From an uncultured delta proteobacterium (GTDB taxonomy: Bacteria > Desulfobacterota > RBG-13-43-22): a DNA stretch of 38,047 nucleotides. A model generated the notes under the pieces. That model did not search any database. It was given only the letters and a program-made list of their open reading frames with translations, and was not told the DNA's origin. Shown here one piece after another: positions 15,146 through 35,643 of the stretch. The position numbers and the translations under genes were made by a program. The DNA lies in contig CAWDKY010000037.1 in the NCBI GenBank assembly GCA_963802945.1, forward strand, positions 1 through 38,047, in the 5' to 3' direction. Within the stretch, counting starts at the first letter, position 1. Every line of letters begins with the position of its first letter.

Positions 15146-15153
15146 GTCTTTTC

Positions 15154-15747: not shown

Positions 15748-15778
15748 TTTTTCTCCTTGCATGCCTGGTCTATTTGGC

Positions 15779-15820
15779 GCACAATAAGTTATTCTAATGT
15801 TTTTCTGGATAACACTACAA
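15779..15820 (-). other. attI-like site A (core reads ATT instead of GTT)
   Basis: 15783-15820 is 33/38 identical to 35314-35351; ATTGTGC is complementary to GCACAAC of the cassette's attC except at the first base. Confidence 0.7.
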
Positions 15821-15904
15821 TCTACGATTTAGATCGGGGAAAGCACCCCTGATCATTATTCTATTTTAGATAACTTATGATTTGCCAATCCCCCCAAACA
15901 TTTT

Positions 15905-15943
15905 GTAACCTATTATAAATTATAAATATTATCTTGACAAATT
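15905..15943 (+). repeat. Conserved 39-bp AT-rich block with TTGACA, 120 bp from attI-like site A
   Basis: GTAACCTATTATAAATTATAAATATTATCTTGACAAATT, 36/39 identical to 35435-35473. Confidence 0.85.
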
Positions 15944-16015
15944 CTTTTTATTCCCAAAATTCTGGGAAAAGTATTTTCTTCAAATTGACATGATATACAG
16001 AAATAGGAAGATTCT

Positions 16016-16074
16016 TCAGGTTTTTCCTAAAACCACCTGCTTTCGGTAGGCTTCAAACAACCTGCCCCATTCGG
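16016..16074 (-). pseudogene. Diverged copy of the 3' end of the DUF362 gene
   Basis: Encodes EWGRLFEAYRKQVVLGKT* versus EWGQLFEVYRKQGVLEKAG*; 45/56 nt identical to 13941-13996. Confidence 0.85.
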
Positions 16075-16185
16075 GACCTTTTAAGATTGCTCATAAAGGT
16101 CCTGTCGCCCTCCATTGGAGGCCTCTTCTGTAAGTCGGCATAGCCGACCAGCTACAAGGTGCCCGGTTTCAACAACCTGTTAAAA

Positions 16186-16911
16186 TTATATTTTCTCTTT
16201 CAAATATCTCTGCCTCAGATTTTCCGGAAATTTCTCAATCGCATAGCGGAGCATGGTTCGCGGCATGGTTTTGTAGTGGACTTTCAGAAACGATTCTTCG
16301 GTCTTTTGATCCCGTTTGCCTATTTCCCGAAGCATCCAGCCGACGGCTTTATGGATGAGGTCTTCCGGATCCTGAAGGAGCATTTCAGCAACGATCAGAG
16401 TGTCCGAGAATTCACCTTTCTTGATAAAGTGAAAAGTGGCCATGATAGCGATCCGGCGGTCCCAGATCAGGTTTGAGGCGGCCAGAAATTGAAGTTGCTG
16501 GCGGTCAAAATCTCCCAAATGAGCACCGATAATATGTTCGGCCGAAAGATCCACCAGATCCCAGTTGTTAATAAAACGGGTATGTTTTAGATAAGTTTTG
16601 TAAATCTGTTCTTTGATCGGTGCATTCCCTTGCCTGTAGGACCAAACCATGACGAGCAGGGCTAATAGTCGGGCTTCATGGATGGGAGAATGGATTAATT
16701 GGATAACAGCCTGGAGAGGGAGTGCCTGATATTCTTTGGCCAGCTTTCTGATTTCCGGAATCTGGAGACCTAAAAAGACATCACCTTCTCCATATTCGCC
16801 GGGACCGGTTTTAAAAAACCTTTGCAGTCCCTTGGCCCGTTGAGGATCTCCCAGGATTTGTATTTTTGAAAGGATCTCTTGTAGGTTTGGTTTGGATAGG
16901 GGAGTTTTCAT
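16186..16911 (-). CDS. DNA alkylation repair protein (AlkD-like HEAT-repeat glycosylase)
   Basis: FFKTGPGEYGEGDVFLG, NNWDLVD, DLIHKAVGWMLREIGK, MPRTMLRYAIEKF. Confidence 0.93.
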   Translation of the reverse strand: MKTPLSKPNLQEILSKIQILGDPQRAKGLQRFFKTGPGEYGEGDVFLGLQIPEIRKLAKEYQALPLQAVIQLIHSPIHEARLLALLVMVWSYRQGNAPIKEQIYKTYLKHTRFINNWDLVDLSAEHIIGAHLGDFDRQQLQFLAASNLIWDRRIAIMATFHFIKKGEFSDTLIVAEMLLQDPEDLIHKAVGWMLREIGKRDQKTEESFLKVHYKTMPRTMLRYAIEKFPENLRQRYLKEKI

Positions 16912-16968
16912 GATTAATGACACTGTCAAAAAGATTAAAAACCTATTGTATAGTAACCGGATTTACTT

Positions 16969-17081
16969 TGTCATTCCGGACCCCGTATCAGGTACGGGGC
17001 AGGCCCGTTCCGGAATCCAGCATTTTCAACCTGGATTCCTGCTGGAGTCTATTCCGCACTTGATGCGGGACAGGAATGACA
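16969..17081. repeat. REP-like palindromic element (GTCATTCC...GGAATGAC family) with nested hairpins
   Basis: TGTCATTCCGGA...TCCGGAATCCAG / CTGGATTCCTG...CAGGAATGACA; inserts CCCCGTATCAGGTACGGGG and TCCGCACTTGATGCGGG. Confidence 0.8.
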
Positions 17082-17143
17082 GATCAGGAAGATTGTAAAC
17101 CTGTTATTGAGACAATGAACTGGACTTGGTCTCCTTATTAAAT

Positions 17144-17947
17144 CTAGAGCTTAAAGGCCGGTTCTGATGCGACCGACTTCAAGATTTTCTCTGCCGACTT
17201 TATTTGTTCCGAAGTACCGCTGACGGCCAGCCAGATACTGCCTTCGGCCCCGCCTACACCGCCACCGGCAACCAGAGTCGCTGTGGCCCCGGAGAGCAAA
17301 TGGATAGCCTCGATCTCGGTAAAGATTTCTCCTGGAACGGGCATATAACGGGGACCGGACGCACCGGGTGCATTCATCAGGGCGGCAATGGTATCGAGGT
17401 CTTCAAAGACCCTTTTCTCAAGGCCAACCGGCAATATCAGACGAACACGACGGCCCACTACTGCCTGCAAAGCCCTAAGAATCGTTCCTCCCTTGGGGTC
17501 TCCGATCAGGATGGCGGCCCTTTTCCGGACAGGATCTACGGCATTGGCGCCTTTCAGAATTACATCCCCTTCTTTCAGATCATCAACAACATCGAAAATC
17601 GTTTTACCTTTTTGCCAGGCTCCCTTGAACAAAACCACATCGCCTGGAAAGTGATCGTGATCAGGCAGACGGCCTTCTTGGGTCGTCGGTCGTGAAGGCG
17701 GGATGGTGATCCCTCGAAAGAACCGGCGCCGGGAAAAGGGTTCTTTGCAGCCAATGGCGGCCAGTACCTCTTCGGCCACATATCCATTGGTCGTTCCGGC
17801 AATGATCACGACTGTTCCCGAATTGAGTGCCAGACGAAGATCCGGATGTACGGCCATAGCCTTTCCGATCAATCGTTTCCCGGCTGCTGTTGTAATGCTG
17901 AATTGTTTCATTTCAATCCTTTCATCTTCTGATTTGGTATTTTTCAC
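17144..17947 (-). CDS. Conserved hypothetical protein
   Basis: 267-aa ORF with [37 protein letters not shown]; start may be ATG 17911. Confidence 0.8.
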
Positions 17948-17978
17948 TTCTCACCATAGTTCAAGGGCTGCTCCATTT

Positions 17979-18656
17979 TTACTGCGATCTTGCTGACATA
18001 CAGGCCCGAACCTGTTCCCAGTCCACTTCAGCCTTCCGACAGTTCATTTTTTTCAGCAACACGCCCTGAATAACGGATTTGGTGCCTCTTGAATCGATGG
18101 AATAACCGCTACTGCCAATGGTGTATTTAGCCAGCAGACGGTGGCGGAAATACCAAGGGCAAATCACTCCCAGGACTGCGGAGGGAGCATGTTCCTTGAT
18201 TTTCGCCAGCATGAATTGATCACTGGGAATAATTCCTTCCTTTTTTATCATTCGGGAACTGGGCACTATATATACCGCTTTATAGCCAAGTTCAAGAGCC
18301 TCTTGGCGTATTTGTCCCAGCTCGCAGCCTGGGCAAATCTCCTGACACAAATAACCAAGGCTGGGGTCTAAATGGGCGGGACAATTGAGCGGACGAAGGC
18401 AGAGGGGCAGGAAAAACAACCGATTTTGATAAGAAGTGGCGGCAAAGGCTTTCCGAAAATATTTGTTACCAGCCCTTACTAGACTGAGATCCAAGACAGG
18501 GCCGGTTTTTATTAAAAGACGTCCCATAAGCCTGTATAAAGCCCGAATAATGTTTAGGCTGACCTTGGGCAAATAAAGCCGGCCGAATAAAAACGGCCCT
18601 GACAGAAGCATTATTACCGCCAAGCAACCGATCAGTAATCCGTATATCCAAGACAT
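17979..18656 (-). CDS. DUF116 family protein
   Basis: N-terminal TM segment; FLPLCLRPLNCPA..YLCQEICPGCELG..LGYKAVYIVP..LGVIC. Confidence 0.8.
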   Translation of the reverse strand: MSWIYGLLIGCLAVIMLLSGPFLFGRLYLPKVSLNIIRALYRLMGRLLIKTGPVLDLSLVRAGNKYFRKAFAATSYQNRLFFLPLCLRPLNCPAHLDPSLGYLCQEICPGCELGQIRQEALELGYKAVYIVPSSRMIKKEGIIPSDQFMLAKIKEHAPSAVLGVICPWYFRHRLLAKYTIGSSGYSIDSRGTKSVIQGVLLKKMNCRKAEVDWEQVRACMSARSQ

Positions 18657-18914
18657 AATAATTTATAGTAGCGGATGCTTTCAGGTTAATGGATGTTTTG
18701 GGTCTGGGCCATGACAATGAATTCCTGGATTGTCTCTGTATCGGGACGTAAAGGAAACTGACATTCTAATTCAAAGTCTTCAATTAATCTTTTTTATTAT
18801 TTATAACAAACATCTCGCTTAGAAGCAACGGGGTTTTAATTTTAGGTTAAATCCCAGTGAATCAATAATTATTTTTATTGACTCTAATGTGCCGTTTGAG
18901 ATAACATCAAAATT

Positions 18915-19077
18915 GTAAAGGAACCGATTGCCGGTTTAAAAGGGAAGACGGTTGAAGGCCGTCACGGTCCCGCCGCTGTATCCGGGGACGAAAGCCACTT
19001 CGGCCACTGCCCGCCTTAAGGCGAGCGGGAAGGCGTGGAAAGTAGAAGGATCCGGGAGTCAGAAGACCTGCCTTTAC
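18915..19077 (+). ncRNA. Cobalamin riboswitch
   Basis: AAAAGGGAAG, CCCGCCGCTGT, GCCACTG, GGGAAGG, AGTCAGAAGACCTGCC; P1 GTAAAGG/CCTTTAC; upstream of cobU. Confidence 0.95.
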
Positions 19078-19144
19078 CTAAGGAATCCCCAAAAGCGTTG
19101 GACACGAAGGGATTCGACTTAACGGATCAAGTAAGCTGGGTGCC

Positions 19145-19181
19145 ATCCTTAAGTTCAGCAAGTGGACTTAAGGATTTTTTA
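19145..19181 (+). terminator. Intrinsic terminator (riboswitch expression platform)
   Basis: ATCCTTAAGTTCA-GCAAG-TGGACTTAAGGAT followed by a T run just before the cobU start. Confidence 0.75.
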
Positions 19182-19183
19182 TT

Positions 19184-19738
19184 TTGGACCCAAAAATAAA
19201 TCAACAAGCCCGTTTAACCCTCATCACCGGACCGGTCCGCAGCGGTAAAACCCGATTGGCCCTTCAATGGGCTGCCGCCTTTCCCAAACCTCGGGCCTAT
19301 CTGGCCACAGCTCAGGGACTGGACCCTGAGATGTTGGAACGAATCCGACGCCACCAGGAGGAAAGAAGTTCCACTTTTCAAACCTTCGAAGAACCCTTAA
19401 ATTTAAGTTCCCGGCTTGAACAAATAGAGGCCGATTTTTCTATCGTGGTTGTGGATTGTCTAACCCTTTGGATAAGTAATTTATTGGGAGCCCTGGGGGA
19501 GGAAGGGCAGGGGACTCGGGAACGATTGGATGAATTTTTATCGGTCCTGAGGCGCATCAAAACGCCGCTGATTCTCATAAGCAATGAAGTGGGCTGGGGT
19601 ATCGTTCCTGAAAATGCTTTGGCCCGAACCTTCCGTGATCTGAGCGGACGACTGCATCAGGAAATTGCCCAGATAGCCGATCAAGTGATTTTAATGGTGG
19701 CCGGCATTCCCATGTTTGTCAAAAGGGAAAGAGAATGA
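19184..19738 (+). CDS. cobU: Adenosylcobinamide kinase / phosphate guanylyltransferase
   Basis: ITGPVRSGKT, YLATAQ, VDCLTLWISN, SNEVGWGIVP. Confidence 0.95.
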   Translation: MDPKINQQARLTLITGPVRSGKTRLALQWAAAFPKPRAYLATAQGLDPEMLERIRRHQEERSSTFQTFEEPLNLSSRLEQIEADFSIVVVDCLTLWISNLLGALGEEGQGTRERLDEFLSVLRRIKTPLILISNEVGWGIVPENALARTFRDLSGRLHQEIAQIADQVILMVAGIPMFVKRERE

Positions 19739-20484
19739 GTTCTTTTCTCATGGCTCTTCGTTTTTTAACCATTATCCCTTTGGGAAAGCCAAAGGAGATC
19801 ACTGCCGATGCCGTGGGGGCCGCTGGAAAATTCTATCCTTTGGTAGGTTTGGTTATTGGAGGTCTGCTCTGGATTTTCTTTTATGGGGTTAATCTGCTTT
19901 TCCCTATTTCGGTTTCTATCGGGCTGCTTCTGATTTTTTGGGTTGTTCTGACCGGTGCCCTGCACCTGGATGGTCTGGCCGACTGCCTGGATGGTCTTTA
20001 CGCCGGGACCGATCCTGAAGAACGCCTTCGCATTATGAAGGATGTTCATCTGGGAGCCATGGGGATCGTTGGGTTGATCCTGATATTGGGGATGAAATAT
20101 CTGATCTTGCGGGAGGTCATGTCTTTTCCTTCCCTTTGGATATGGATCATTCTTATACCGGTAATCAGCCGTTGGACCCCGATTGTGTTGGCCTTCATAT
20201 TTCCTTATGCCCGGCAGGGAGATGGGCTGGGACAGGCTCTGGTAACAGGAACGGGGAAGAAAGAACTCTTCTGGGCTACCTTATTGTCTTGGATTCCGAT
20301 ATTGATTTTGGGTCGGTTTTGGGGACTGGGATTGATCCTGATGACTTTGTTTTGGAGTTTGATATGCGGTTGGTATTTTCATAAAAAATTAGGAGGGATC
20401 ACCGGGGATGTTATGGGAGCGATCATAGAATCCAGCGAAGTCTGGGGACTTCTTTATGTGTTGGGGGTGTCTCCTCATGTCTGA
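19735..20484 (+). CDS. cobS: Adenosylcobinamide-GDP ribazoletransferase
   Basis: FLTIIP, TGALHLDGLADCLDG, IMKD, GGITGDVMGA. Confidence 0.95.
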   Translation: MSSFLMALRFLTIIPLGKPKEITADAVGAAGKFYPLVGLVIGGLLWIFFYGVNLLFPISVSIGLLLIFWVVLTGALHLDGLADCLDGLYAGTDPEERLRIMKDVHLGAMGIVGLILILGMKYLILREVMSFPSLWIWIILIPVISRWTPIVLAFIFPYARQGDGLGQALVTGTGKKELFWATLLSWIPILILGRFWGLGLILMTLFWSLICGWYFHKKLGGITGDVMGAIIESSEVWGLLYVLGVSPHV

Positions 20485-21106: not shown

Positions 21107-21180
21107 GGTTCAGGGTATAGGGTACATGGTAACCTTAAAGCTTTATACATCAAATATTTTGAACCTTAAACCTTGAACCG
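21105..21180. repeat. Inverted heptamer-repeat tract
   Basis: AAGGTTC AGGGTAT AGGGTAC ATGGTAA ... TGAACCT TAAACCT TGAACCG. Confidence 0.55.
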
Positions 21181-21183
21181 GAA

Positions 21184-21337
21184 TTTATTGTCGTGTCCCA
21201 GGAAGTCTGGATAAACCAGCACTGCCCCGCAACTGTGGACGGAACGAAATCCCAGCAGGCCACTGTCCTGAATAGTGCAGGACGGGAAGGCGAGGAAATT
21301 AGGGTGCCGTCAGTCAGGATACTGGGCCGACAAATAA
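21184..21337 (+). ncRNA. Cobalamin riboswitch (atypical 5' part)
   Basis: CTGCCCCGCAACTGT, GCCACTG, GGGAAGG, AGTCAGGATACT; closing stem TTATTGTCG/CGACAAATAA; upstream of btuB. Confidence 0.85.
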
Positions 21338-21367
21338 TCAAACCTCTTTCGAGGGAAAGGAGAAACA

Positions 21368-23365: not shown

Positions 23366-23403
23366 AAGTGAAAAAATAGAAGTCAAGGGTTGGATTAAGA
23401 TCT

Positions 23404-23602
23404 TTGACGCGCTTTTGACATTGCAATTAAGGGAACGGCGAAGCAATCGCATCGTTGGTGGATTGCTTCGCTTTCCTCGCTAAGGTCGTCACCCCGGCGA
23501 AAGCCAGGGTCCAGAAAAAGAATAAATCTTTACAATACTGGATTCCGGCTTTCGCTGGAATGACCTAACTCGGTTTTCGGCGACTTTTCACAAATCCGTC
23601 AA
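23404..23602. repeat. Composite REP/MITE-like element
   Basis: Ends TTGACG/CGTCAA; inner GCGAAGCAATC/GATTGCTTCGC and GTCACCCCGGCGAAAGCCAGGGTCCAG...CTGGATTCCGGCTTTCGCTGGAATGAC (23488-23564). Confidence 0.75.
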
Positions 23603-23609
23603 GAAAAAA

Positions 23610-24518: not shown

Positions 24519-24519
24519 T

Positions 24520-26301: not shown

Positions 26302-26312
26302 GGAATTCATTA

Positions 26313-26461
26313 AATCCCTTTTTTGGTTCATGGCGTTGCCCTGGGGATATTAATTTTTACCTGGCACGGTGGGGTCTCTTGAAGTCCTGCGTTCTTCCGG
26401 ATTTTCCATCCTCGATCAATCGGCTTTGAAGGGGGTAAAAGAGTGGAAGTTTATACCCGCC
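26313..26461 (+). pseudogene. tonB: Energy transducer TonB remnant (internally deleted, interrupted at WKFIPA)
   Basis: LVHGVALGILIF anchor, then in another frame GTVGSLEVLRSSGFSILDQSALKGVKEWKFIPA (TonB C-terminal pattern). Confidence 0.8.
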
Positions 26462-26498
26462 GTTGTCAACAAATAATTAGTATGGATGTCCCCCGATT
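26460..26498 (+). repeat. 39-bp end motif, copy 1 of 3
   Basis: CCGTTGTCAACAAATAATTAGTATGGATGTCCCCCGATT; also at 30812-30847 and 32086-32124. Confidence 0.9.
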
Positions 26499-26674
26499 GT
26501 CTTTACCTCATGAAAGATACGCCCCCCGGGTTTTCGATCCCATGATTTTTTGACTTACTCTTTTGATGATAGGAGGATTAAAATTTAATTGATGAAAAAA
26601 AGGATTTTTGAAGATAAAATCGGGACCAGCGATTGATCAGGTAAATCGCAAACTTGATAAATGGAGGATTCGTA

Positions 26675-28285: not shown

Positions 28286-28422
28286 CCTATTCCACCTTTG
28301 CCTCGATAGGTGATAATTGTTAATATGAAAGATGCGACCCCATGCTTTGTGTTTTAAATGTAGCATCGTTTAACGTTTTAACAATTAAAGAGAACCGGCC
28401 CCTTTATTTTATTGGTGGCCGG

Positions 28423-28502
28423 AAAGAGTGGAAGTTTACCGCTCAAAAGACGGCAGCCTGTTGAGATGTTGTCCAGATACCGGACACCTTATGCTGGAGT
28501 AA
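28423..28502 (+). pseudogene. Degenerate copy of the tonB 3' end
   Basis: AAAGAGTGGAAGTTTA matches 26438-26453; the remainder aligns with 30688-30769 with about 6 small deletions. Confidence 0.8.
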
Positions 28503-28587
28503 AACAGGAAATAGGCAATAGGGAAGAGGCAAGAGGGAATAAGAGACTAATAAAAGTATAGTCATTGGCCTAAAATTTATGACCTGC

Positions 28588-28651
28588 TTATAACGCAAAG
28601 TTTACCGGGAAGCCCGATTTTCAGGCGATCCGCTGGAACGTCTTGTTAGGC
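28588..28651 (-). other. Integron attC site (64 bp) overlapping the antitoxin 3' end
   Basis: Minus strand GCCTAAC-aagacgttccagcggatcg...cccggtaaactttgc-GTTATAA; the ORF reads through as RLTRRSS. Confidence 0.75.
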
Positions 28652-28868
28652 GCTTGGTGCACCGGGTGATCTCTAAGAGAGATCTCAGTGCTTCATTCAC
28701 CGAGGCAGAATCATGGAAGGCCTTAGCAACATCGGAGTCAAGAATAACAACGTTCGAACCTTCTTCAAGAAGACGTTTGTAATATTTTCCTCGGACTGCC
28801 CTTGTATAATCAAAGTTATACTCCGGACGTAATTCGTCACTCTCTTTTTTTGTCTTTTTATCCTTCAT
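28602..28868 (-). CDS. BrnA-like antitoxin
   Basis: DELRPEYNFDY..VRGKY..LDSDVAKAFHDSASVNEALRSL; overlaps the toxin gene. Confidence 0.85.
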   Translation of the reverse strand: MKDKKTKKESDELRPEYNFDYTRAVRGKYYKRLLEEGSNVVILDSDVAKAFHDSASVNEALRSLLEITRCTKRLTRRSSGSPENRASR

Positions 28869-29127
28869 GTCTTTTCCTCTCTTGGCTGGACGCTGGTCTG
28901 GCGCTAATGATGCGAGTATTTTCTCCTCTGTCTGTATGCGCAACAACGATAAGACGATTTTTTGAGGAAAAACCAATTGTGATGTATCGTTGTTCCTCTT
29001 TCGAATGATCGGGATCGTCAAAAGTTGCTGATAGTGGGTCATAAAGCGTTGTTACTGCTTCATCAAAAGAGACGCCGTGTTTCTTTAAATTTTGTTTGGC
29101 TTTTTGGGAGTCCCATTCAAATCGCAT
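28858..29127 (-). CDS. brnT: BrnT family toxin
   Basis: MRFEWDSQKAKQNLKKHGVSFDEA..DPDHS..RIISAR. Confidence 0.93.
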   Translation of the reverse strand: MRFEWDSQKAKQNLKKHGVSFDEAVTTLYDPLSATFDDPDHSKEEQRYITIGFSSKNRLIVVAHTDRGENTRIISARPASSQERKRHEG

Positions 29128-29187
29128 ACTGATATTCTATCGCATTTTAGATTATTAATCCAGGCATAAAATTGAATTGAATCCAAC

Positions 29188-29319
29188 CTACCTTTTAAGA
29201 TTACTTTCCCCCTGTCTCTGGCGATCCTTGGCAAATCCGAAAAGGAATTCTCTCTTGTGGCCTCGGTGGGTAATATGCCAGATACAGCCTGGAATATAAT
29301 GTCGCTTTGCTCTTGCCAT
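29188..29319 (-). pseudogene. N-terminal fragment of a second RAYT/Y1 transposase (not in the ORF track)
   Basis: MARAKRHYIPGCIWHITHRGHKREFLFGFAKDRQR.. then stop after 43 aa. Confidence 0.8.
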
Positions 29320-29353
29320 TTGTTTTTCGAATAAAGCCCTTAAAGTAGTTTAG

Positions 29354-29374
29354 GAACTCAGTAAACAACGTCCC
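29354..29374 (+). repeat. 21-bp RAYT-end-like motif, direct copy at 30662-30682
   Basis: GAACTCAGTAAACAACGTCCC versus GAACTTAGTGGTCAACGTCCC (17/21), both followed by T runs. Confidence 0.7.
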
Positions 29375-29408
29375 TTTTTTTGGCTGAAGAAGTAGGCGAT
29401 GGAGTGGT

Positions 29409-30488
29409 TCAGGGTTGTTCTCCTCTTACCTTGGGGGTGGGGCCGGTGAGCCGCATGGCGCCCTTGGCAAGCACAGGGCCGAGCAGCAAGACGGCGAGAA
29501 AACGGCCGATCTGGACCGCCATCACCAGGGATGCGTCGACGTGCGTACCGGCAGCGATGATCGCGATCGAGTCCGCGCCGCCAGGGCTGGTGGCGAGGTA
29601 GGCGGTGAGTGCGTCGAGGTGCGATACGTGCGCCAGCACCCAGCCGATTGCGGCACAGGTCCCTATCAGCGTCACGATCGAGGTGAACACACGCGGCAGT
29701 GCGCGGGCCGCCTGACGGAAGATGTCGCGGGTGAAGCGTAGGCCAATGGCCCAACCGATGATCAGGTAGCTTGCCGCAAGGAGTGGCTGCGGCAGTTCGA
29801 CTCGAAGATAGCCCAGGTCCTGAAGTGCGGTCATAGCCACCAGGGGTAGGAGCAAAGGGGCGGCAGGGAGGCGCAGCCTCGGCCCGATGAGGCCGGAGAT
29901 GAGGATGACCACGAGCACGATCGCGAAAGATGGCCAGGCGACTGGCACGAGCCAGGCCGTATGATGCACGGCTGCGCCGGCGAGGCCCCAGAGCCGGCCC
30001 ACGAGCGAGGCCGTCAAAACGACGAGGACGACGCGCAGGTACTGCATCAAAGCGACCAGGGGCATGTCGCCGCCGAAGGAGTCGGCGAGCAGCACCATCA
30101 CCGTCGCCGCGCCGGGGAAGGAGCCCCACAAGGCCGTGTTCCCGGGCAAGACGTGCAGGCGGGTGAGCACCATACCGAGCGCTGTGGCGACAAGCAGAAC
30201 AGAAAGCGTCGCGCCGATAAAGAGGACGAGGTGCTGGCCGATGGTCTGGAACAGGGCAGGCGTAAAATTGCGGGCGATGAGGCAACCAACGACCGCCTGG
30301 GCGAGGGGGAAGAGCCAGCCAGGCATCTGCAGTGTTGCGCCGCCGCCGACAAGGATCATGGTCGCGCCCATTGCGCCGAGAAGGAAGGCCGCTGGCAGGC
30401 CGATCAATTGGAGGAGGGCGACAAGAACGGCGGTGGTTATCAGGAGGAGCGGAATCGTGAAAAAGAGGAGGTGATCCGTTTGATTCAT
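29409..30488 (-). CDS. AbrB-family membrane protein (AidB regulator / ammonia monooxygenase-like annotation)
   Basis: Duplicated LPAAFLLGAM / LPAAPLLLPL, FPGAATVM / SPGGADSI, ALMQYLRV / MAVQIGRF; visibly higher GC than flanks. Confidence 0.9.
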   Translation of the reverse strand: MNQTDHLLFFTIPLLLITTAVLVALLQLIGLPAAFLLGAMGATMILVGGGATLQMPGWLFPLAQAVVGCLIARNFTPALFQTIGQHLVLFIGATLSVLLVATALGMVLTRLHVLPGNTALWGSFPGAATVMVLLADSFGGDMPLVALMQYLRVVLVVLTASLVGRLWGLAGAAVHHTAWLVPVAWPSFAIVLVVILISGLIGPRLRLPAAPLLLPLVAMTALQDLGYLRVELPQPLLAASYLIIGWAIGLRFTRDIFRQAARALPRVFTSIVTLIGTCAAIGWVLAHVSHLDALTAYLATSPGGADSIAIIAAGTHVDASLVMAVQIGRFLAVLLLGPVLAKGAMRLTGPTPKVRGEQP

Positions 30489-30630
30489 TTTTGACAATCT
30501 GGCTCTCTTTTTATCCCCCTGTCCACACCTTTGTTGTCAACTCTCAATTCCAAGACGACTTCAGACATGGACACTCCTAATTTCTGGTTTAAATAGGGGC
30601 AGATTTCTTCCCTTTACTCCGATGCGGCCA
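30485..30630 (-). pseudogene. Possible degenerate C-terminal HTH fragment of a RAYT transposase
   Basis: REEICPYLNQKLGVSMSEVVLELRV..GIKR resembles LGFSMIEISKRLEI of the 6848 element; lies inside the 30662-30682 end motif. Confidence 0.4.
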
Positions 30631-30687
30631 TTCAACGACTAAATCCAGTATAGCATTTTGTGAACTTAGTGGTCAACGTCCCCTTTT

Positions 30688-30769
30688 AGTGAAGTTTATA
30701 CCTGCTCAAAAAGACGGGCAGCCTGCTGAGATGTTGGTCCAGATACCGGTCACCTTTAAGCTGGAATAA
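30688..30769 (+). pseudogene. In-frame copy of the tonB 3' end
   Basis: Encodes KFIPAQKDGQPAEMLVQIPVTFKLE*, the continuation of the TonB sequence broken at 26461. Confidence 0.85.
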
Positions 30770-30811
30770 AAAAGATGAAATGAGATAATGAGAAATTGAG
30801 ATTACAGATAT

Positions 30812-30847
30812 CCGTTGTCAACAAATAATTAGTATGGTCCCCCGATT
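30812..30847 (+). repeat. 39-bp end motif, copy 2 (3-nt deletion)
   Basis: CCGTTGTCAACAAATAATTAGTATGG-TCCCCCGATT, preceded by CAGATAT. Confidence 0.9.
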
Positions 30848-30886
30848 TCGTAGCCCTATCTCCTTTCTGTCAGAATGATATTGAGG

Positions 30887-32014
30887 CTATATGCGTCTCA
30901 GCCCGGGGATCGCCGGATAAAGGAACCAGAGATAGCGCTGATGAAAATGCGCTCTGGATTTAATAATCGGCTTATAGATTAGATGTGTGCTGTAAGGGTG
31001 GGTAGCGTTAAGAAATATTTTGGCAAGATAGCATAGCCGCCACCAGCGATTCATGCGCCGGAATTCCTGTAAGGCCTTATCCCTGTCTTTTACCGCGATC
31101 GCGGCAATTTTCCCGGATACGAGAGCGCCATGAACGCCTAACACCCAAGAGGGGTCCTGAACGCCCGCCAGCGTTCCCGTGAGAATGAACCGATCATGAA
31201 AAAGCCGCGGATTGAATAATGAATGTGTAGGCGTACCCACATAATCCTCGATTATTCTCCAATCGTCAAAATCCAATCCCTCATCTTCTTTTAGCCGCCT
31301 TGGAAACCACTCCTGGGCCGCTGCGGAAATGCTCGCCCCCCGCTGAAAGAGAATGGCGGCCCCTATGCCGTTTATAATGGTAAAATAGCCGTAGTCTTTC
31401 GTAAATCTATCAAGATATACTATTGTTTCAGGCCCTTGGTGTTTCTTGAATTCTTGAATGGCAAAATACGCATACGCCGGTACGAACGGCACATCAAGAG
31501 CGATAAAGGACTTTCGGAACATGCCGGTCGCTATAATGCTTCCCGATGGGAGTTCGGAAAAATCATTCTTGGACTCCACGACCGCATTGAAGCGGAATTT
31601 TACGCCCGCATTGCGGGCGGTATGATACAGGTGGGAATCAAGCGAGGATGGCCGCGGACCGCGCTCGATGAGTTTCACGTGCAAATTCTCTGGAAAATAC
31701 ATTTCGCATTTTGTACCCGATATATAAAAGCGCGCAGAGGGCAGCGGGGTAAAATAGTCGATGTGATTGCATTTTTCTTTATCGGGCATGAGATCAAAAC
31801 CAAGATAGTGCGAGAGTCGCTCGATATCGAATGGCGTCATGTCGGCAATCGCAAATGGTCTTTTCATTTTTACTTCCTGGTCTAGGGCGACCCCGCCGAT
31901 AGCATTCCCCCTCTCCCAGATTTCAACTTCATAGCCGTCGCGGGCCAAACAGATCCCCGCAGTCAACCCCGAAAGACCAGCGCCGACGATAAGTATTTTA
32001 CCCAGACGTGCCAT
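30887..32014 (-). CDS. FAD-dependent oxidoreductase (geranylgeranyl reductase-like)
   Basis: KILIVGAGLSGLTAG..EIWERG, IIATG, LTGTLAGVQDP..GVHGALVSGKIAA. Confidence 0.85.
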   Translation of the reverse strand: MARLGKILIVGAGLSGLTAGICLARDGYEVEIWERGNAIGGVALDQEVKMKRPFAIADMTPFDIERLSHYLGFDLMPDKEKCNHIDYFTPLPSARFYISGTKCEMYFPENLHVKLIERGPRPSSLDSHLYHTARNAGVKFRFNAVVESKNDFSELPSGSIIATGMFRKSFIALDVPFVPAYAYFAIQEFKKHQGPETIVYLDRFTKDYGYFTIINGIGAAILFQRGASISAAAQEWFPRRLKEDEGLDFDDWRIIEDYVGTPTHSLFNPRLFHDRFILTGTLAGVQDPSWVLGVHGALVSGKIAAIAVKDRDKALQEFRRMNRWWRLCYLAKIFLNATHPYSTHLIYKPIIKSRAHFHQRYLWFLYPAIPGLRRI

Positions 32015-32085
32015 GAGTATCCTATATCATTACTACATCTTCAATGTCAAGAAAATAGACCTGACCCCTATTTCCCCTCAGACAT

Positions 32086-32124
32086 CCGTTGTCAATAAAT
32101 AATTAGTATGGATGTCCCCCGATT
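32086..32124 (+). repeat. 39-bp end motif, copy 3
   Basis: 38/39 identical to 26460-26498, preceded by CAGACAT. Confidence 0.9.
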
Positions 32125-32245
32125 CTAAAATTCATACATATAATTAAAACCTAACGCTGAGGCTCTTTGACAGTGATTAGTTGCAAATGGGGTAAGCTAA
32201 TATCGTCTCTTTGAACCCCGATGGGCCCGTTCTCAAAGGTAGAAT

Positions 32246-32277
32246 TGTAAAATAGGGAGGGCTGTCCCTATTTTACA
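32246..32277. terminator. Perfect 13-bp hairpin abutting the Mrr-like gene stop (terminator or element end)
   Basis: TGTAAAATAGGGA-GGGCTG-TCCCTATTTTACA. Confidence 0.55.
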
Positions 32278-33330
32278 CTAGCTCTTTGTTTTCAAAAAAC
32301 TGGACAGCATTTTTCTCAAGCGCTCTACCCGTTTCCTGTCAGTTATTTCAACATAGTGAGCAGAATACTTTGTTTCAAGAACCAATCTCGCCTGAAGGAG
32401 CATGCCGAACTGGTAAGATTCAATCAGGATGAAGTGGGCAAGGCTGTTCTCGATCTTTTCACAGTAGTAGTAGTTATGAAGGTTAGGAGTGAAATAGAAC
32501 TTCCCCGGCTCTAGTTTTGTGTCGAATCCAAGGTTTACTTCCTGTGCTGATAGCTTGCGGACAACATTTCCAGCTTCGTCCGTCAGTTCATAGAATGTTC
32601 CAATTCCCTCCAACACATGGGTATCTACAGTCGGGGCCTTTGGGATGAAAGCCTTGGTAAGTTTATAAAAGAACTTGATTTTCTCTGGTCTGACATTACC
32701 TTCGTATGGTACGACCGCTACTGTTCCCGTTGGAAATTCAAGAACCTCTTCATATTCTTTCTCTGGCTGGAGACCAGAGATACTGATTCTCCACGAGTTC
32801 AGAAAAGCGTTGGGTGTGGTTTGACGGTCTGAAATATATAGCTGGATGTTATTCATCAGGTATGCCAATTTGCCCCCGATGTCCTCAAGAAAGAACTCCT
32901 TTTTATCCTGGAGGATGAACCTGACATTGAAGATGTTCAAAGCCGGTATTATTTTTGCGGCTATCTCATCCAAGTTAACATCGATTTTCTTTTCAAGAGT
33001 CAACAATTTAACCCCATGTCTAGCCGCTACCTCGAAGCAGCCTGATTGATAGCCACTTGAAGATACAAAGACGGCATTGCTGGCGTTGACATCCCTCGCT
33101 TTAGTTATGAAAGCATCAATTTTCGTAACTGGAACTTTGTCCTTGTAGTTCTTGCACTCGATTACAGTCAAATAGTCATATAAACCGGCCTTGAAACGCA
33201 ACGTAACATCGAATTGGCGGCCGTTTATATTATCATCCCAAGTAACAGAAGCACCTTGCGCTTCCGCGTGATGAATAGCCGCCACCAGTCTTTCAAATTC
33301 TTTCCAATTCGGGTTATTCATTGTCACCAT
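32278..33330 (-). CDS. Mrr-like restriction endonuclease (Mrr_cat N-terminal, unknown C-terminal domain), cassette gene
   Basis: WKEFERLVAAI..RQFDV..VIECKNY..VFVSSSGYQSG; starts 4 bp after the attC core. Confidence 0.85.
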   Translation of the reverse strand: MVTMNNPNWKEFERLVAAIHHAEAQGASVTWDDNINGRQFDVTLRFKAGLYDYLTVIECKNYKDKVPVTKIDAFITKARDVNASNAVFVSSSGYQSGCFEVAARHGVKLLTLEKKIDVNLDEIAAKIIPALNIFNVRFILQDKKEFFLEDIGGKLAYLMNNIQLYISDRQTTPNAFLNSWRISISGLQPEKEYEEVLEFPTGTVAVVPYEGNVRPEKIKFFYKLTKAFIPKAPTVDTHVLEGIGTFYELTDEAGNVVRKLSAQEVNLGFDTKLEPGKFYFTPNLHNYYYCEKIENSLAHFILIESYQFGMLLQARLVLETKYSAHYVEITDRKRVERLRKMLSSFLKTKS

Positions 33331-33334
33331 CTGG

Positions 33335-33384
33335 AACTAACATTGCGCTCAGCGGCGCGCGTCCGCTGAAGCGTTTGGTTGGGC
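33335..33384 (-). other. Integron attC site (50 bp, very short)
   Basis: Minus strand GCCCAAC-caaacgcttcagcggacgcgcgccgctgagcgcaat-GTTAGTT, between two co-oriented genes. Confidence 0.85.
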
Positions 33385-33390
33385 GCGCTC

Positions 33391-34449
33391 CTACGAACTT
33401 TTTCCTCCGTTTACATAAACAACGCTTCCGCCAGACAGATATGCCAAATCAAATCCACAATGATCGACCACATACTCTAAGAGATGATCCGACGGTTCCA
33501 CTTGAAGCGCAAGGCACTTTTGAGCGGCGTGAAGTTTTTTCTTATAAAGATAAGAGTAGTACCACAATTGGGCGACGCCAAGGCGCACCTGTGCGTCAAT
33601 GTTTGTGGGCCTGCAGGACTTCACCTCAACGATAATGGATTTGCGTGACTTCCTTGCGCAAAGGTCTAGATGTTTGTCATGTAGCAGGTCATAGCCCTTT
33701 GCCGAAAGGTATGCCGCAACCTTCTGCTTGACGCGTTCATGATTTATGAAAGACTCACGAAGCTTGGCGTTGTTCTTGATCAGACGGATTATCTCTTGGT
33801 TTGTGTGCGCATCATACTCCTTCTTCAAATAGTCCTGCAGATCACCCGATTTTGATTTATGGGCGGCACCGACGCCCCGGAGACGAGCTGGTGTGATGTC
33901 AGGGAAATACCTGCGCGCAATCTCCAGCAAAGTTGTGCCGGAAGGGGATCGCTCTAAGCCCAGATTCCTCAAAAGGCCGAGCATGTCAGAGAAGATATTT
34001 CGCGCTTCCCGACCTGAAAGATAGAGGAAGTACCGGCTAAATTGCTTGCCTGCTGGTACGTGCCGCTTATCATTGAACTCGAGATATTCTGGTAGCCTCA
34101 GGCAGAAGCGCTTAGGGGCTTTCACGCTGTAAAAGCGATCACGAATCTGGCGCGCCGGAAAGACCTGCGCATTGGCAAAGAGGCCGACGATGAATTGTCT
34201 GCTTTCGGAGATGTTTCTGGAGACGAAGAATACTACGCCTCCGTCGTCGAAGTGCCTGACGTCACGGCCTAGATTCTCAAAAAAGCCATACTGCCATTTG
34301 CCTGGACTTTGCCTGAAGTTCCAAGACTCACCTGGGATGTGTTTCGGATTGCTGGCGACCCATTTGAACCCAGAGCGGTCCGGGCTATGGGCTTCCCAGC
34401 CTTTACTATTCCATGTGAGATTGGCCAAAATAAAAGTGTTCTCGTTCAT
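33391..34449 (-). CDS. Putative two-domain nuclease with C-terminal PD-(D/E)XK motif, cassette gene
   Basis: HERVK..LDLCARK..IVEVKS..QVRLGVAQLWYY; N-terminal ANLTWNSKGW..ESWNF domain unassigned. Confidence 0.7.
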   Translation of the reverse strand: MNENTFILANLTWNSKGWEAHSPDRSGFKWVASNPKHIPGESWNFRQSPGKWQYGFFENLGRDVRHFDDGGVVFFVSRNISESRQFIVGLFANAQVFPARQIRDRFYSVKAPKRFCLRLPEYLEFNDKRHVPAGKQFSRYFLYLSGREARNIFSDMLGLLRNLGLERSPSGTTLLEIARRYFPDITPARLRGVGAAHKSKSGDLQDYLKKEYDAHTNQEIIRLIKNNAKLRESFINHERVKQKVAAYLSAKGYDLLHDKHLDLCARKSRKSIIVEVKSCRPTNIDAQVRLGVAQLWYYSYLYKKKLHAAQKCLALQVEPSDHLLEYVVDHCGFDLAYLSGGSVVYVNGGKSS

Positions 34450-34538
34450 TGTGCCTCTACGCGTTATCCTGCCCTATTTCGCTTGCTCTTCGTCCCTTCT
34501 CGTTTCCATAAGCGGCCAACGAGGGCGCGAAGCGTCCT

Positions 34539-34591
34539 CGACAACAATGGATTGAAACGACCTTTCAGGATCATCTCAATCCTTATTGGTT
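34539..34591 (-). other. Degenerate attC-like hairpin
   Basis: Minus strand AACCAAT-AAGGATTGAGATGA..TCGTTTCAATCCATT-GTTGTCG immediately at the stop of the upstream gene; followed by a small hairpin and GTTGGCC at 34520. Confidence 0.5.
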
Positions 34592-35294
34592 AACTCTTGT
34601 TTGCAAGCTGTGTCCCACCTTGGAATAGTTGTTCAAGGCTTCCCGAAAGCCAGTAGAGCAATTCATCAAATGCAGCCTCATCTCCACACAATGCTTTGCT
34701 ACTCCAAGCAGCTGCAAACTCAAGCGGATTGGACGGAGGCAATGGACCGCCTATGGCTGCATGTATTATACGAGGCAGGTTCGATCGATGTGTCATAGTG
34801 TTGCGAAAATCCTTCCATAGCTTCCACTGGTCGGAAGCAAGAAGCTGATGCAAGGTCGAAACTAGCCGGAGAGATTCATTGATGGACTTAAGTTGGTCCA
34901 ACAGGTGGCGTGCACCACTTTTGTATCTACGAGTTTCTTCACCAAACTCCAGACCAAACACACTTGGGGCGCTGGCAAGAGCATAACAGGCGTATATCGT
35001 TGCCTCAACACAGGATACTCCCGAGACAAAGGTTCCAAAGAGCAGTCGTTCCCGAAGGTAAATAGCGTCAAAGGAAACGTCCGGCCCATACTGCCGCCAA
35101 GACGCCATATAGCCTTCCTTGTCCTCCACACAGGCACGAAAACGCCACCCGATAATGTTTGATGCGCCACCAAATTCACGTCTTGCTTGAGAATTATCCG
35201 CTGACACGGCTCGGACGCTTTTGGCGAACTCTTCAAAGGCTTCGAGAGGAAATAAGGATGGCACATATAGTTGCAATATTTCAGAGAAAGGCAC
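34590..35294 (-). CDS. Putative HEPN-domain RNase, first cassette
   Basis: Helical-looking protein with RNTMTH (R-x4-H) motif; AGGAG RBS before GTG 35294. Confidence 0.65.
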   Translation of the reverse strand: MPFSEILQLYVPSLFPLEAFEEFAKSVRAVSADNSQARREFGGASNIIGWRFRACVEDKEGYMASWRQYGPDVSFDAIYLRERLLFGTFVSGVSCVEATIYACYALASAPSVFGLEFGEETRRYKSGARHLLDQLKSINESLRLVSTLHQLLASDQWKLWKDFRNTMTHRSNLPRIIHAAIGGPLPPSNPLEFAAAWSSKALCGDEAAFDELLYWLSGSLEQLFQGGTQLANKS

Positions 35295-35309
35295 GGCAAC
35301 TCTCCTTTG

Positions 35310-35351
35310 GGGCAACAAGTTATTCTAAAGTTTTTCTGTATAACTCCACAA
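35310..35351 (-). other. attI-like site B (intact GTT core)
   Basis: Minus strand TTGTGGAGTTATACAGAAAAACTTTAGAATAACTT-GTTGCCC; 33/38 identical to site A; similarity stops at the GTT. Confidence 0.72.
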
Positions 35352-35434
35352 AACAACGTATCCCGTCAGGGATCAATAGTGGTCATTGGCTGCTGTGAAA
35401 CTGTCAATTGACCACCAACCCGTTTTTAATTCGG

Positions 35435-35473
35435 GTAACCTATTATAAATGGTAAATATTGTCTTGACAAATT
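35435..35473 (+). repeat. Conserved 39-bp block with TTGACA, 119 bp from attI-like site B
   Basis: 36/39 identical to 15905-15943. Confidence 0.85.
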
Positions 35474-35643
35474 AATTTTGAATCATCTCCAAAAGTTGGC
35501 GATGAGCTGAGGATCATGGGGTCATTTTTTAATATTGACAATTGTCAATATCGGGGGGCATGGTAAGGAGGGCAGGGCCGAGTTTGATTCCCTGCCGCTC
35601 TGTTCACCAAGAGGCTTGGCATTTAACCTCAAAGAAAGAAACT

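Follow-up and report, generated by a model that had tools for sequence, protein, structure and literature searches.

The superintegron of Vibrio cholerae (IntIA/IntI4, PDB 2a3v) has a divergent intI gene, followed by the promoter Pc, the attI site and same-strand cassettes with attC, among them toxin-antitoxin-type cassettes. The attC sites are imperfect palindromes of the form R''(..AAC)-L''...L'-R'(GTT...), which have extrahelical bases and one strand orientation within arrays, and attI1 of class 1 integrons, a site of simple structure, combines L and R boxes with direct repeats upstream. Xanthomonas chromosomal integrons are locus-fixed and ancestral, with one locus per genome; their integrase is often inactivated and the arrays persist. 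Clusters of attC without a nearby integrase gene (CALINs) occur about as often as complete integrons; how they arise and whether they are active is debated, chiefly since attI has been defined in only a few classes. A 2016 study (PMC4889954) proposes intI loss as one origin of CALINs, counts 15 of 279 CALINs with an intI pseudogene nearby, describes a genome with several integrons losing intI from one of them as a possible scenario, and states that in most integrons attI is not known and that it cannot be searched for.

The DNA analysed here (the window, 38,047 nucleotides) belongs to a genome, G000, from one uncultured, sulfate-reducer-related genus of the Thermodesulfobacteriota (72 contigs, contamination 6.7%). 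The window carries two copies, A and B, of a module of ~170 bp, in which a distal block (the predicted promoter) and a proximal block (a conserved 38-nt site) are separated by a variable spacer of ~84 nt. Each copy is very probably the head of a chromosomal integron (Pc and attI) that has lost its neighbouring integrase gene by deletion, and each locus would then be a CALIN still bearing attI and Pc. A caret marks the putative crossover throughout. The features are the following.

11944-12511, minus strand: last gene of array 1, a PEMT/ICMT-type methyltransferase (11944-12429), opening with a hairpin leader, TTGGCGCC...
12512-15094, minus strand: array 1 stretch with DUF362 (13935-15050) and choloylglycine-hydrolase-family (12584-13762) genes, ending in attC 12504-12570
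15095-15784, minus strand: cassette 1 of array 1, flavin-reductase-like ORF (15154-15762) and attC 15087-15147
15783-15820, minus strand: attI-type site, copy A, reading ...GTTATCCAGAAAAACATTAGAATAACTTA^TT (from repeat, pattern and copy alignment)
15821-15904, minus strand: variable Pc-attI spacer, copy A, subfamily 1, with a GGGG..CCCC hairpin (15832-15854) and a short ORF
15905-15949, minus strand: predicted Pc block, copy A, -35 TTGTCA 15940-15935, 17-nt spacer, -10 TATAAT 15917-15912, facing into array 1
15950-16017, minus strand: remnant of the intI leader (the intI-Pc intergenic region), running to the base beside the relatives' intI start codon
16016-16074, minus strand: DUF362 3' remnant with its own stop codon at the end (53 nt, 16022-16074, by the repeat finder)
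16186-16929, minus strand: AlkD-type DNA alkylation repair gene (PF08713, 215 bits), a conserved flank outside the integron, syntenic in G004
28586-30781, minus strand: conserved distal part of array 2, AbrB-family membrane protein (29409-30497), BrnT toxin ORF (28858-29127) and attC 28586-28653
30782-33340, minus strand: remaining strain-variable stretch of array 2, Mrr_cat-type (32278-33330) and FAD-oxidoreductase-type (30887-32014) genes
33341-34544, minus strand: cassette 2 of array 2, ORF without family match (33391-34449) and attC 33333-33386
34545-35315, minus strand: cassette 1 of array 2, ORF without family match (34590-35294) and attC 34537-34597
35314-35351, minus strand: attI-type site, copy B, reading ...GTTATACAGAAAAACTTTAGAATAACTTG^TT (from repeat, pattern and copy alignment)
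35352-35434, minus strand: variable Pc-attI spacer, copy B, subfamily 2, with a terminator-like hairpin (35373 to 35360)
35435-35479, minus strand: predicted Pc block, copy B, TTGTCA 35470-35465, 17-nt spacer, TATAAT 35447-35442
35542-36717, plus strand: GH3/NagZ-type gene, a conserved flank 62 nt from the Pc block; G013 has intI directly upstream of it

The repeat finder recovered the two blocks twice each, at 15782-15820 and 35313-35351 (39 nt, 87%) and at 15905-15949 and 35435-35479 (45 nt, 89%). A 31-nt proximal and a 37-nt distal pattern, with up to three mismatches each, matched exactly these two copies in the window and nothing in 100 dinucleotide-preserving shuffles of it, so the repeated blocks described by the first-pass annotation are real. 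Its identity of 36/39 for the distal block was reproduced by blastn, its flanks (a gene remnant plus alkD, and nagZ) are borne out by the PF08713, DUF362-remnant and GH3/NagZ matches, and its distances of 120 and 119 bp between the blocks were measured as 122 and 121 bp from start to start. The similarity between the copies ends where that annotation had placed it, at (G/A)TT on the minus strand (ATT 15785-15783 in copy A, GTT 35316-35314 in copy B), and the crossovers would fall between 15785 and 15784 and between 35316 and 35315, respectively. Copy A reads ATT, not GTT, at this point, which counts against its reading as an integron head. The proximal block sits in the 5' UTR, ~20 nt ahead of the first start codon, and the intI leader holds an inverted copy of its motif TTTCTG(G/T)ATA.

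The window genome contains about nine to sixteen such heads: the genome pattern search gave nine strong and seven weaker proximal blocks and fourteen distal blocks, with distal blocks lacking a proximal partner at about five places and some heads lying in tandem inside arrays on contig C41. Several further dispersed intergenic repeat families are present in this genome. Mean pairwise identity among nine copies is 87% in the distal block, 59% in the spacer, 87% in the proximal block and 30% over the 38 nt past GTT. The break at (G/A)^TT is exact in all nine of these copies. Of the 21 instances of the pattern in the genome set, 20 show it too, and the one exception (L009) is an AT-rich match unrelated to the module. 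Nine of the fourteen genomes of the genus possess the pattern, compared with none of seven from other genera of the family, and a reversed-pattern control over the genome set yielded no matches. In G001, about ten module copies lie on a single 2.0-Mb contig, its heads being found on contigs of 1.6-2.0 Mb. An integron type with this Pc-attI module would thus be specific to one uncultured genus, a conclusion that we hold with the same good confidence as the integron-head reading as a whole.

Both distal blocks contain TTGTCA-17-TATAAT, matching 11 of 12 positions of the sigma-70 consensus on the array strand (15940 to 15912; 35470 to 35442). The TTGACA previously described as pointing away from the array does lie on the plus strand, but the 11/12 promoter is on the minus strand and faces into the arrays; the promoter scan found no plus-strand promoter built on TTGACA in either copy, and an orientation away from the array is the weaker reading. 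Position, homology and consensus together support the Pc assignment as a likely one within the integron-head reading. Similar to attI1, the proximal site has a putative ...TAAC box that precedes a G^TTRRRY box by a few bases, and a GTTAT-type repeat further upstream, whereas it shares no sequence similarity with attI1.

The question of the first-pass annotation, whether any copy adjoins intI, is answered by two relatives. Contig C47 of G017 carries, in order, an intact 485-aa IntI gene, the leader, the Pc block, the spacer, attI, and G^TTATGC with an ORF; contig C14 of G003 has the same layout, and both proteins score 386 bits on TIGR02249 (cut-off 265). In alignment A3, copy A corresponds to both relatives starting with the base that follows the intI ATG, their intI-adjacent attI-type sites included. 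Since two other genomes of the genus have the module beside an intact integrase, it can be read as Pc plus attI. The best solved relative of the G017 IntI is IntI4 (2a3v, 256 bits), to which the relatives' IntI aligns without a break over residues 11-306; the IntI of the genus has about 170 additional residues at its N-terminus. IntI of this type occurs in six of the fourteen genomes of the genus. An IntI gene (for a tyrosine recombinase with an additional IntI-specific domain) adjacent to an array, as in G017 and G003, is missing from the window genome, and the integrase that had been postulated elsewhere in it was not found either: a TIGR02249 search of all 72 contigs returned nothing above the cut-off (best 79.6 bits), a PF00589 search gave four other tyrosine recombinases, none near a head, and the sole tblastn trace of intI was a 26-aa C-terminal remnant (81%) by a Pc block on C41. 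Similarly, no IntI was found in G004 or G001, and the two genomes richest in pattern matches have none.

Traces of intI loss are found in this genome and in its relatives. At copy A, intI itself is missing past the retained leader. The orthologous nagZ site shows intI in any of four states, from present through a 3' stub or a 5' stub to absent: residues 247-485 precede nagZ in G013, only 420-485 are left in G003, only 3-72 in G001, and none in G000 and G004. Copy B, as judged from sequence comparison, is at the ancestral nagZ-linked integron site of the genus. The three deletion states point to repeated intI loss rather than design, and together with the leader of copy A and the 3' remnant on C41 they are the reason for reading the heads as decayed full integrons; the same three observations rule against a purpose-built distributed system.

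The attC sites were searched with a covariance model of our own, not that of IntegronFinder, built from ten sites chosen by eye downstream of heads. Hand alignment A1 (15 pairs and a bulged base) agrees with the imperfect palindrome of attC, as does the strand-specific orientation. The window yielded five sites, each on the minus strand, after five of about ten genes in the two arrays, and the earlier description of attC-delimited genes is thus borne out for about half of them. The model found no attC after the DUF362, PEMT (the end of array 1), Mrr-type, FAD-oxidoreductase or AbrB genes, and some of the content of each array may therefore be other than cassettes; an unrecognised cassette boundary is possible at GTT 13807-13805. 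With 150 of 1268 first-look candidates scored, the genome has at least 30 matches at E<=1, ten of them seeds; among the 20 non-seed matches, nine are on the strand of a head and no more than 10 kb downstream of it (2.3% expected) and eleven away from any head, an enrichment test that is partly circular because the seeds were picked downstream of heads, the matches being clustered as well. All 22 matches in eight loci are on the array strand. CALINs are delimited by at least two clustered attC within about 4 kb (Cury et al.), and by our model each array has such a pair (15087-15147 with 12504-12570; 34537-34597 with 33333-33386), while the AlkD-type and NagZ-type genes stand where a nearby integrase would be.

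Several units recur in other contexts. An 872-nt unit, 89.5% identical, is found in two arrays (C41 and C53) with (A/G)^TT at both ends; the first 27 nt of cassette 2 of array 2 recur at C53 behind another cassette, and the 26-nt leader start of the PEMT/ICMT-type unit also stands after attI at C53. Cassette 1 of array 1 has a 94% identical copy in a different context (L037) in the sister genome G004. The first-pass annotation had asked for cassette variation between relatives, and both orthologous heads differ wholly in content between G000 and G004: the alkD head of G004 bears three other ORFs, and five other ORFs with four attC take the place of 30782-35434, with flanks 85-94% identical. 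The stretch 30782-33340, which contains 39-nt direct repeats (32086-32124 and 30812-30850), is missing from the G004 locus, whereas the distal part 28586-30781 is retained at 85-94% identity; there, a 146-aa ORF without family match (28602-29042) overlaps the BrnT ORF and is at most a candidate antitoxin. The Pc-nagZ junction is common to both genomes (96.6% over 35435-35523), and the DUF362-remnant-leader-Pc junction recurs in G004. The DUF362 remnant and the 3' end of the complete DUF362 gene in array 1 share 83% identity, and at the orthologous place in G004 the gene is full-length. The array differences from G004 could instead reflect homologous replacement or mis-joins at repeated heads.

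The first-pass annotation had proposed that a single integrase, resident in the genome but encoded away from the heads (and in this case missing from the assembly), serves all heads in trans as a distributed integron. The dispersed attI platforms of this proposal are present, but the 72 contigs hold no resident trans integrase, and we regard it as rather doubtful. The attI blocks equal the promoter blocks in conservation and exceed the spacer, which hints at constraint on attI; cassettes were exchanged at two heads from which intI was missing before G000 and G004 diverged, and IntI of this type is not rare in the genus. Moreover, the intI-bearing copies tend toward contig ends (the G003 contig stops inside attI, that of G017 is only 7.4 kb), and an intI of G000 could therefore be lost in assembly or binning. 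Against this stand the lack of IntI in G004 and in G001 with its megabase-scale contigs, its lack in the two genomes with most pattern matches, and the repeated losses at the nagZ site.

Three further explanations are less likely still. A MITE-like mobile promoter element, or an intergenic repeat family ending in GTT by chance, would agree with the other repeat families of the genome and with the unpartnered distal blocks; it is very unlikely given the canonical place of the module beside intI in two genomes and the same-strand attC arrays downstream, with cassettes bounded by GTT, and no terminal inverted repeats common to the two window copies were found at the module ends. A purely regulatory role, with the module as operator or leader for paralogous operons under common control, is comparably improbable: the 5' UTR position and the inverted motif in the intI leader would fit, yet the first genes are unrelated over nine heads, the Pfam assignments of the window genes differ, and in relatives this region lies next to intI. 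Mis-joins at a repeat are conceivable in a short-read or metagenome-binned assembly whose relatives' contigs break at the module, but hardly credible for copies only 87-89% alike with different spacers, for two junctions reproduced independently in G004, and for the many copies on one contig of G001.

Compared with the V. cholerae superintegron, which it resembles in IntI, gene order and a toxin-type cassette (BrnT), this system has no intI at the two heads or in the assembly, many heads with short arrays, and the N-terminal extension of its IntI. As in Xanthomonas, locus-fixed ancestral integrons have arrays that outlast the integrase, whereas here the heads are many and the deletions complete rather than point inactivations. 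The loci share attC clusters without nearby intI with the CALINs described in PMC4889954, and differ from these in an identifiable head with attI and Pc homologous to intI-adjacent ones, in about 9-16 heads per genome, and in a deletion series traceable at one orthologous site.

In integron heads that have lost intI, Pc would transcribe the first cassettes, and the heads may stay substrates for an IntI of this type when one is present, either acquired horizontally or encoded by a gene missed by binning; this would explain the cassette differences from the orthologous, likewise intI-less heads of G004. Without IntI, the arrays would be frozen and the heads would last mainly as promoters. A more tentative and rather unlikely possibility is that selection of some kind maintains the Pc-attI head as a semi-autonomous unit, the genome keeping at least ten integrase-less heads as docking and expression sites reloaded by a passing IntI, which would arrive on a mobile element or in part of the population only; if so, what is inherited of the integron would be its heads, and the integrase would be a dispensable part that is lost and regained time and again. 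For integron heads decayed by intI deletion, the genus supplies a sequence-defined attI-Pc head together with genomes that have many heads and no integrase, and makes testable the origin of CALINs by intI deletion, cassette exchange at integrase-less heads, and whether promoter function alone conserves the heads.

The first-pass annotation had described two repeated blocks in the window, which is the complete 38,047-bp contig C37, one of 72 contigs of the 4.37-Mb assembly. Both pairs were recovered by a repeat finder (39 nt with 87% identity for the proximal pair, 45 nt with 89% identity for the distal pair), as well as by block patterns with three mismatches allowed, whose only matches in the window are these two places (0 of 100 shuffles gave a match). 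The module was read on the minus strand, the direction of the adjoining genes, and each copy comprises, in this order, the distal block, a spacer, the proximal block, ~20 nt and the first start codon. Copy A heads array 1 on the alkD side, and copy B heads array 2 on the nagZ side.

Components of the two modules in the window
15905-15949 (-), distal block, copy A
15940 to 15912 (-), TTGTCA-17 nt-TATAAT inside the distal block, copy A
15782-15820 (-), proximal block, copy A
35435-35479 (-), distal block, copy B
35470 to 35442 (-), TTGTCA-17 nt-TATAAT inside the distal block, copy B
35313-35351 (-), proximal block, copy B

The predicted promoter within the distal block (Pc) matches the sigma-70 consensus at 11 of 12 positions. 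A TTGACA on the plus strand had been taken to point away from the array; it occupies the same hexamer region as the minus-strand -35, on the opposite strand. For this candidate integrase promoter (PintI), a promoter scan gave no qualifying -10 element in either copy. The promoter therefore points into the arrays, opposite to the direction originally proposed. The proximal block, an attI-type site, reads ...GTTAT(C/A)CAGAAAAAC(A/T)TTAGAATAACTT(A/G)TT, and the spacer is 83-84 nt long and falls into two sequence subfamilies. The spacers (15832-15870 and 35360-35400 on the minus strand, as well as those of loci L030 and L035) contain a small hairpin and a short ORF from a conserved AATGA, the subfamily 1 peptides having ..(V/G)AFP... 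in common by eye; together, ORF and hairpin might form an attenuator or specify a leader peptide.

In the window genome (G000), blastn and profile searches identified 14 distal blocks (E<1e-4), nine strong proximal blocks (E<1e-8) and seven weaker ones (E<0.01), which bears out the earlier proposal of multiple dispersed heads. Both blocks occur in module order at seven loci, five of them with ~120 bp from start to start. On contigs C30 and C26b the two blocks have ~390-480 bp between them, and C41 has an additional distal and proximal block ~2 kb apart. In an alignment of nine copies, mean pairwise identity is 87% in the distal block, 59% in the spacer and 87% in the proximal block, falling to 30% both over the 38 nt after GTT and over the 46 nt before the distal block. 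The similarity ends at the identical base in all nine copies, followed by diverse bases (GTT-GCCC, GTT-ATGT, GTT-AGGC, GTT-CCTC, GTT-GGGG and GTT-GGCG twice each, and ATT-GTGC in copy A). The core consensus of integron sites is GTTRRRY, to which these junctions are close. Locus L032 (G000:C41:17000-32000) has a tandem series of three same-strand heads within a 7-kb stretch (2295-9000). In the first, an intI 3' stub precedes Pc, the spacer and a proximal block truncated at its inner GTT, after which come two methyltransferase-like ORFs and an attC; the second has a partial spacer, a full proximal block and cassettes; and the third is complete. Heads can therefore occur within arrays.

The exact proximal-block pattern was found at 12 loci of a species-level genome collection, 11 of which belong to Thermodesulfobacteriota or 'delta proteobacterium' MAGs; the remaining locus, in a Pseudomonadales MAG, was discarded as an AT-rich chance match that lacks the flanking conservation. 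Within the window's family, the pattern with at most one mismatch is present in 9 of 14 genomes of its own genus and in none of seven genomes of three other genera, and a reversed-pattern control gave no match in any of these genomes (14 + 7). The integron integrase IntI scores above the TIGR02249 cut-off (265 bits) in six of the 14 genus genomes. Module and IntI are both present in four genomes (G013, G016, G017 and G020), the module without IntI in five (G000, G014, G015, G018 and G021, with a partial IntI of 247 bits in G014), IntI without the module in two (G019 and G025), and neither in three; by identical match coordinates, G018, G020, G021 and G014 are the same as G004, G003, G001 and G005, respectively.

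The first-pass annotation had proposed a search for the motif next to intI, and two such loci were found. On G017:C47 lies an intact, oppositely oriented intI of 485 aa; from it the sequence runs through a leader of 60-80 nt, Pc block, spacer and proximal block to G-TTATGC and an ORF. The same order is seen on G003:C14, where the contig end falls inside the proximal block. The best solved relative of the G017 IntI is the Vibrio integron integrase IntI4 (2a3v, 256 bits), with an unbroken alignment over chain residues 11-306 that includes the stretch where Xer-type recombinases are shorter; in the G003 IntI, the stretch matching the tyrosine recombinase profile PF00589 has 199 residues for 166 profile positions. 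The adjacency to intact intI in both genomes, together with the IntI4-type alignment, identifies the module as the predicted Pc-attI region of a real integron class.

Several features of the integrase side were also observed. The IntI proteins of the genus are 485-491 aa long (L030 2906-4378 and L035 1750-3204, both on the minus strand) and have an N-terminal extension of ~170 aa, which weakly matches the beginning of the IntI model a second time (21 bits) and includes a second stretch matching PF13495. No E. coli-type LexA box was seen by eye in the intI leader. The attI motif TTTCTGGATAAC (15802-15821) has an inverted, 75% complementary partner in the intI leader, TTTCTGTATATC (15984-16003), which is kept in G017, G003, C26 and C27; the two flank Pc, and the leader motif might be bound by IntI or by a regulator. 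In G003, a 294-aa Xer-like recombinase gene (G003:C38:66684-67833) lies in the first-cassette position directly downstream of a head, its product matching the IntI model on either side of the IntI-specific domain, without that domain.

The G000 assembly has no TIGR02249 match above the cut-off, the best scoring 79.6 bits. Its four other tyrosine-recombinase frames (315, 302, 388 and 174 aa) are all away from heads, and tblastn with the G003 IntI returned only those recombinases and one 26-residue C-terminal remnant (C41:19294-19371, 81% identity), 30 nt from a Pc block. Copy A is alignable with the intI-bearing loci starting at the base after the intI start codon (window CTGAAGAATCTTCCTATTTCTGTATATCATG vs G003 CATGAAGAATCCTCCTATTTCTGTATATCTTG); the expected intI start is occupied by the stop codon of a DUF362 remnant of 53 nt, with an AlkD-type gene beyond it. 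Copy B is 62 nt from a NagZ-type gene, and nagZ is present in all 14 genus genomes. The flanks in place of intI are those originally noted (a gene remnant plus alkD, or nagZ).

State of intI at the nagZ site
G013, residues 247-485, 90% identical to those of G017, directly upstream of nagZ; the contig starts there
G003, only residues 420-485, between the Pc block and nagZ
G001, only residues 3-72, adjoining the head
G000 and G004, no intI remains

The nagZ site forms a decay series, with at least three different intI deletions at one ancestral site. Further intI stubs lie beside heads on G005:C34 (residues 1-129) as well as on G003:C16 (residues 1-47, including a stop). Upstream of its alkD head, G004 has a complete DUF362 gene (L036 7868-8980), where the window has the last 53 nt (16016-16074); the full window DUF362 (13935-15050) is the second gene inside array 1 and is 89% identical to the G004 copy, which amounts to a rearrangement between the two genomes.

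Directly after stop codons downstream of several heads, inspection by eye revealed imperfect palindromes laid out as ..YAAC-spacer-stem (with a bulged base)-loop-stem-spacer-GTT.... A home-made attC covariance model, R1 (15 pairs), was constructed from an alignment of ten hand-picked sites (A1), a second seed alignment (A2) with a misaligned R'' being left out. A simple search for AAC...GTT hairpins on the basis of DNA folding energies was dropped as uninformative, giving no sites at the strict threshold and, at the loose one, long palindromes ranked equally on both strands while hand-found sites were missed; blastn with four attC sites yielded almost no relatives, as expected for attC. R1 gave at least 30 matches at E<=1 in the whole of G000, including the ten seeds (150 of 1268 first-look candidates were scored). 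Among the 20 new matches listed, nine have a head block on their own strand no more than 10 kb upstream, against 2.3% expected (binomial P ~3e-10). This enrichment is overstated, since the matches cluster and the seeds were themselves taken from such positions; a single cluster on C28, following a weak proximal block, accounts for four of the nine. All 22 matches in the window and seven other loci fall on the array strand.

attC sites identified by R1 in the window
15087-15147 (-), array 1
12504-12570 (-), array 1
34537-34597 (-), array 2
33333-33386 (-), array 2
28586-28653 (-), array 2

Array 1 carries flavin-reductase-like, DUF362, choloylglycine-hydrolase-family and PEMT/ICMT-type genes, and array 2 two ORFs of no family, Mrr_cat, FAD-oxidoreductase-type, AbrB-family membrane protein and BrnT genes; PADLOC gave no match for four unassigned proteins. 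The earlier description of each site as followed by attC-delimited genes holds in that attC sites lie downstream of both heads, and fails for the DUF362, PEMT-type, Mrr-type, FAD-oxidoreductase-type and AbrB-family genes, after which R1 found no attC in the window. The arrays therefore consist only partly of recognizable cassettes.

Other repeats and elements are present in the window. A GC-rich leader of ~110 nt (13698-13809, minus strand) immediately precedes the ribosome-binding site of the choloylglycine-hydrolase-family gene. Its first element, located at a cassette-type boundary, is a GTTGGCG...CGCCAAC hairpin. The leader has no Rfam family match and recurs at eight other places in G000 (79-95%), including directly after attI on C53, and in the G004 nagZ array. 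A 72-nt promoter-like stretch (32005-32076) just before the FAD-oxidoreductase-type gene is 95% identical on C33, C30, C16 and C17, on the last three of which the 110-nt leader also has a copy, adjoining the stretch or no more than ~1 kb away. Three copies of a 39-nt direct repeat, CCGTTGTCAA...CCCCCGATT, are located at 26460-26498, 30812-30850 and 32086-32124; two of them bracket the attC-less FAD-oxidoreductase-type gene, and the repeat could be a boundary or promoter element of a different type. The repeat 28431-28512 vs 30691-30781 (83.5%) is also found in G004; its second copy lies where the strain-variable part of array 2 ends distally. Two cobalamin riboswitches (18902-19089 and 21175-21345, plus strand; 106 and 64.5 bits) precede plus-strand operons, the second of which starts with a 665-aa ORF. 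Two long complex intergenic palindromes of 150-160 nt (16951-17109 and 23430-23579) have DNA folds of -31 to -36 kcal/mol, and a 106-nt direct repeat (6610-6715 and 10789-10894, 82%) lies outside the integron-head regions.

Cassettes are shared between arrays. An 872-nt unit (a 254-aa ORF with attC) is 89.5% identical in the C41 and C53 arrays, with different neighbours on both sides and homology limits of (A/G)-TTG.. at the start and ..CTCG-TT at the end. The C53 cassette that follows it has the same first 27 nt as cassette 2 of array 2, and a 26-nt leader, TTGGCGCC...CGCCAAT, lies after attI on C53 and after attC at window position 12511. A 94% identical copy of the flavin-reductase cassette is located beside a carboxyltransferase gene in G004. 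These shared units indicate that cassettes move between arrays.

Cassette content also differs from that of G004 at both the nagZ and alkD heads, as a comparison suggested at the outset has now revealed. Contig G004:C42 matches window 28423-30781 (85-94%) and 35435-37125 (91%), including the Pc-nagZ junction; in place of 30782-35434 it carries five other ORFs with four attC matches, and an additional 94-aa ORF is inserted between Pc and attI. The G004 alkD head comprises alkD, the full DUF362 gene and a matching leader remnant, then the module with three small ORFs that differ from those of the window. Since both orthologous heads are intI-less in the window genome and in G004, intI was already gone in their common ancestor, and the contents differ now. 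Such turnover needs either past IntI activity in trans, wholesale replacement by homologous recombination, or mis-joined contigs.

Taken together, the sequence comparisons make it highly probable that the heads are those of chromosomal integrons that lost intI by deletion, i.e., CALINs (attC clusters without a nearby integrase) that keep attI and Pc. A resident integrase serving the heads in trans, the distributed integron of the first-pass annotation, appears unlikely: among the genomes compared, all of them metagenome bins, none was found in the G000 assembly, in G004, or in G001, whose heads sit on 1.6-2.0 Mb contigs. It keeps some plausibility because the intI-bearing copies of the relatives lie at contig ends or on short contigs. 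Far less probable still are a MITE-like element, a pure operator, i.e., a regulatory region, and an assembly artefact.

The loss of intI was proposed as one origin of CALINs by Cury et al. 2016 (PMC4889954), where the term is defined, and the three origins given there also appear in a 2021 review (PMC8618304); this kind of system is therefore known. The former source reports intI pseudogenes near 15 of 279 CALINs, more than one integrase in 20% of integron-bearing genomes, and attI as unknown for most integrons. No description of multiple integrase-less heads retaining attI was found in the portions of text covered by a full-text literature search. New here are a sequence-defined head that an integrase-free genome carries in 9-16 copies, independent deletions of intI at a single site among sister genomes, and cassette content that changed after intI loss. 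Most likely, Pc would drive the first cassettes of these arrays, and the heads could in all likelihood still take cassettes given an IntI of the genus.
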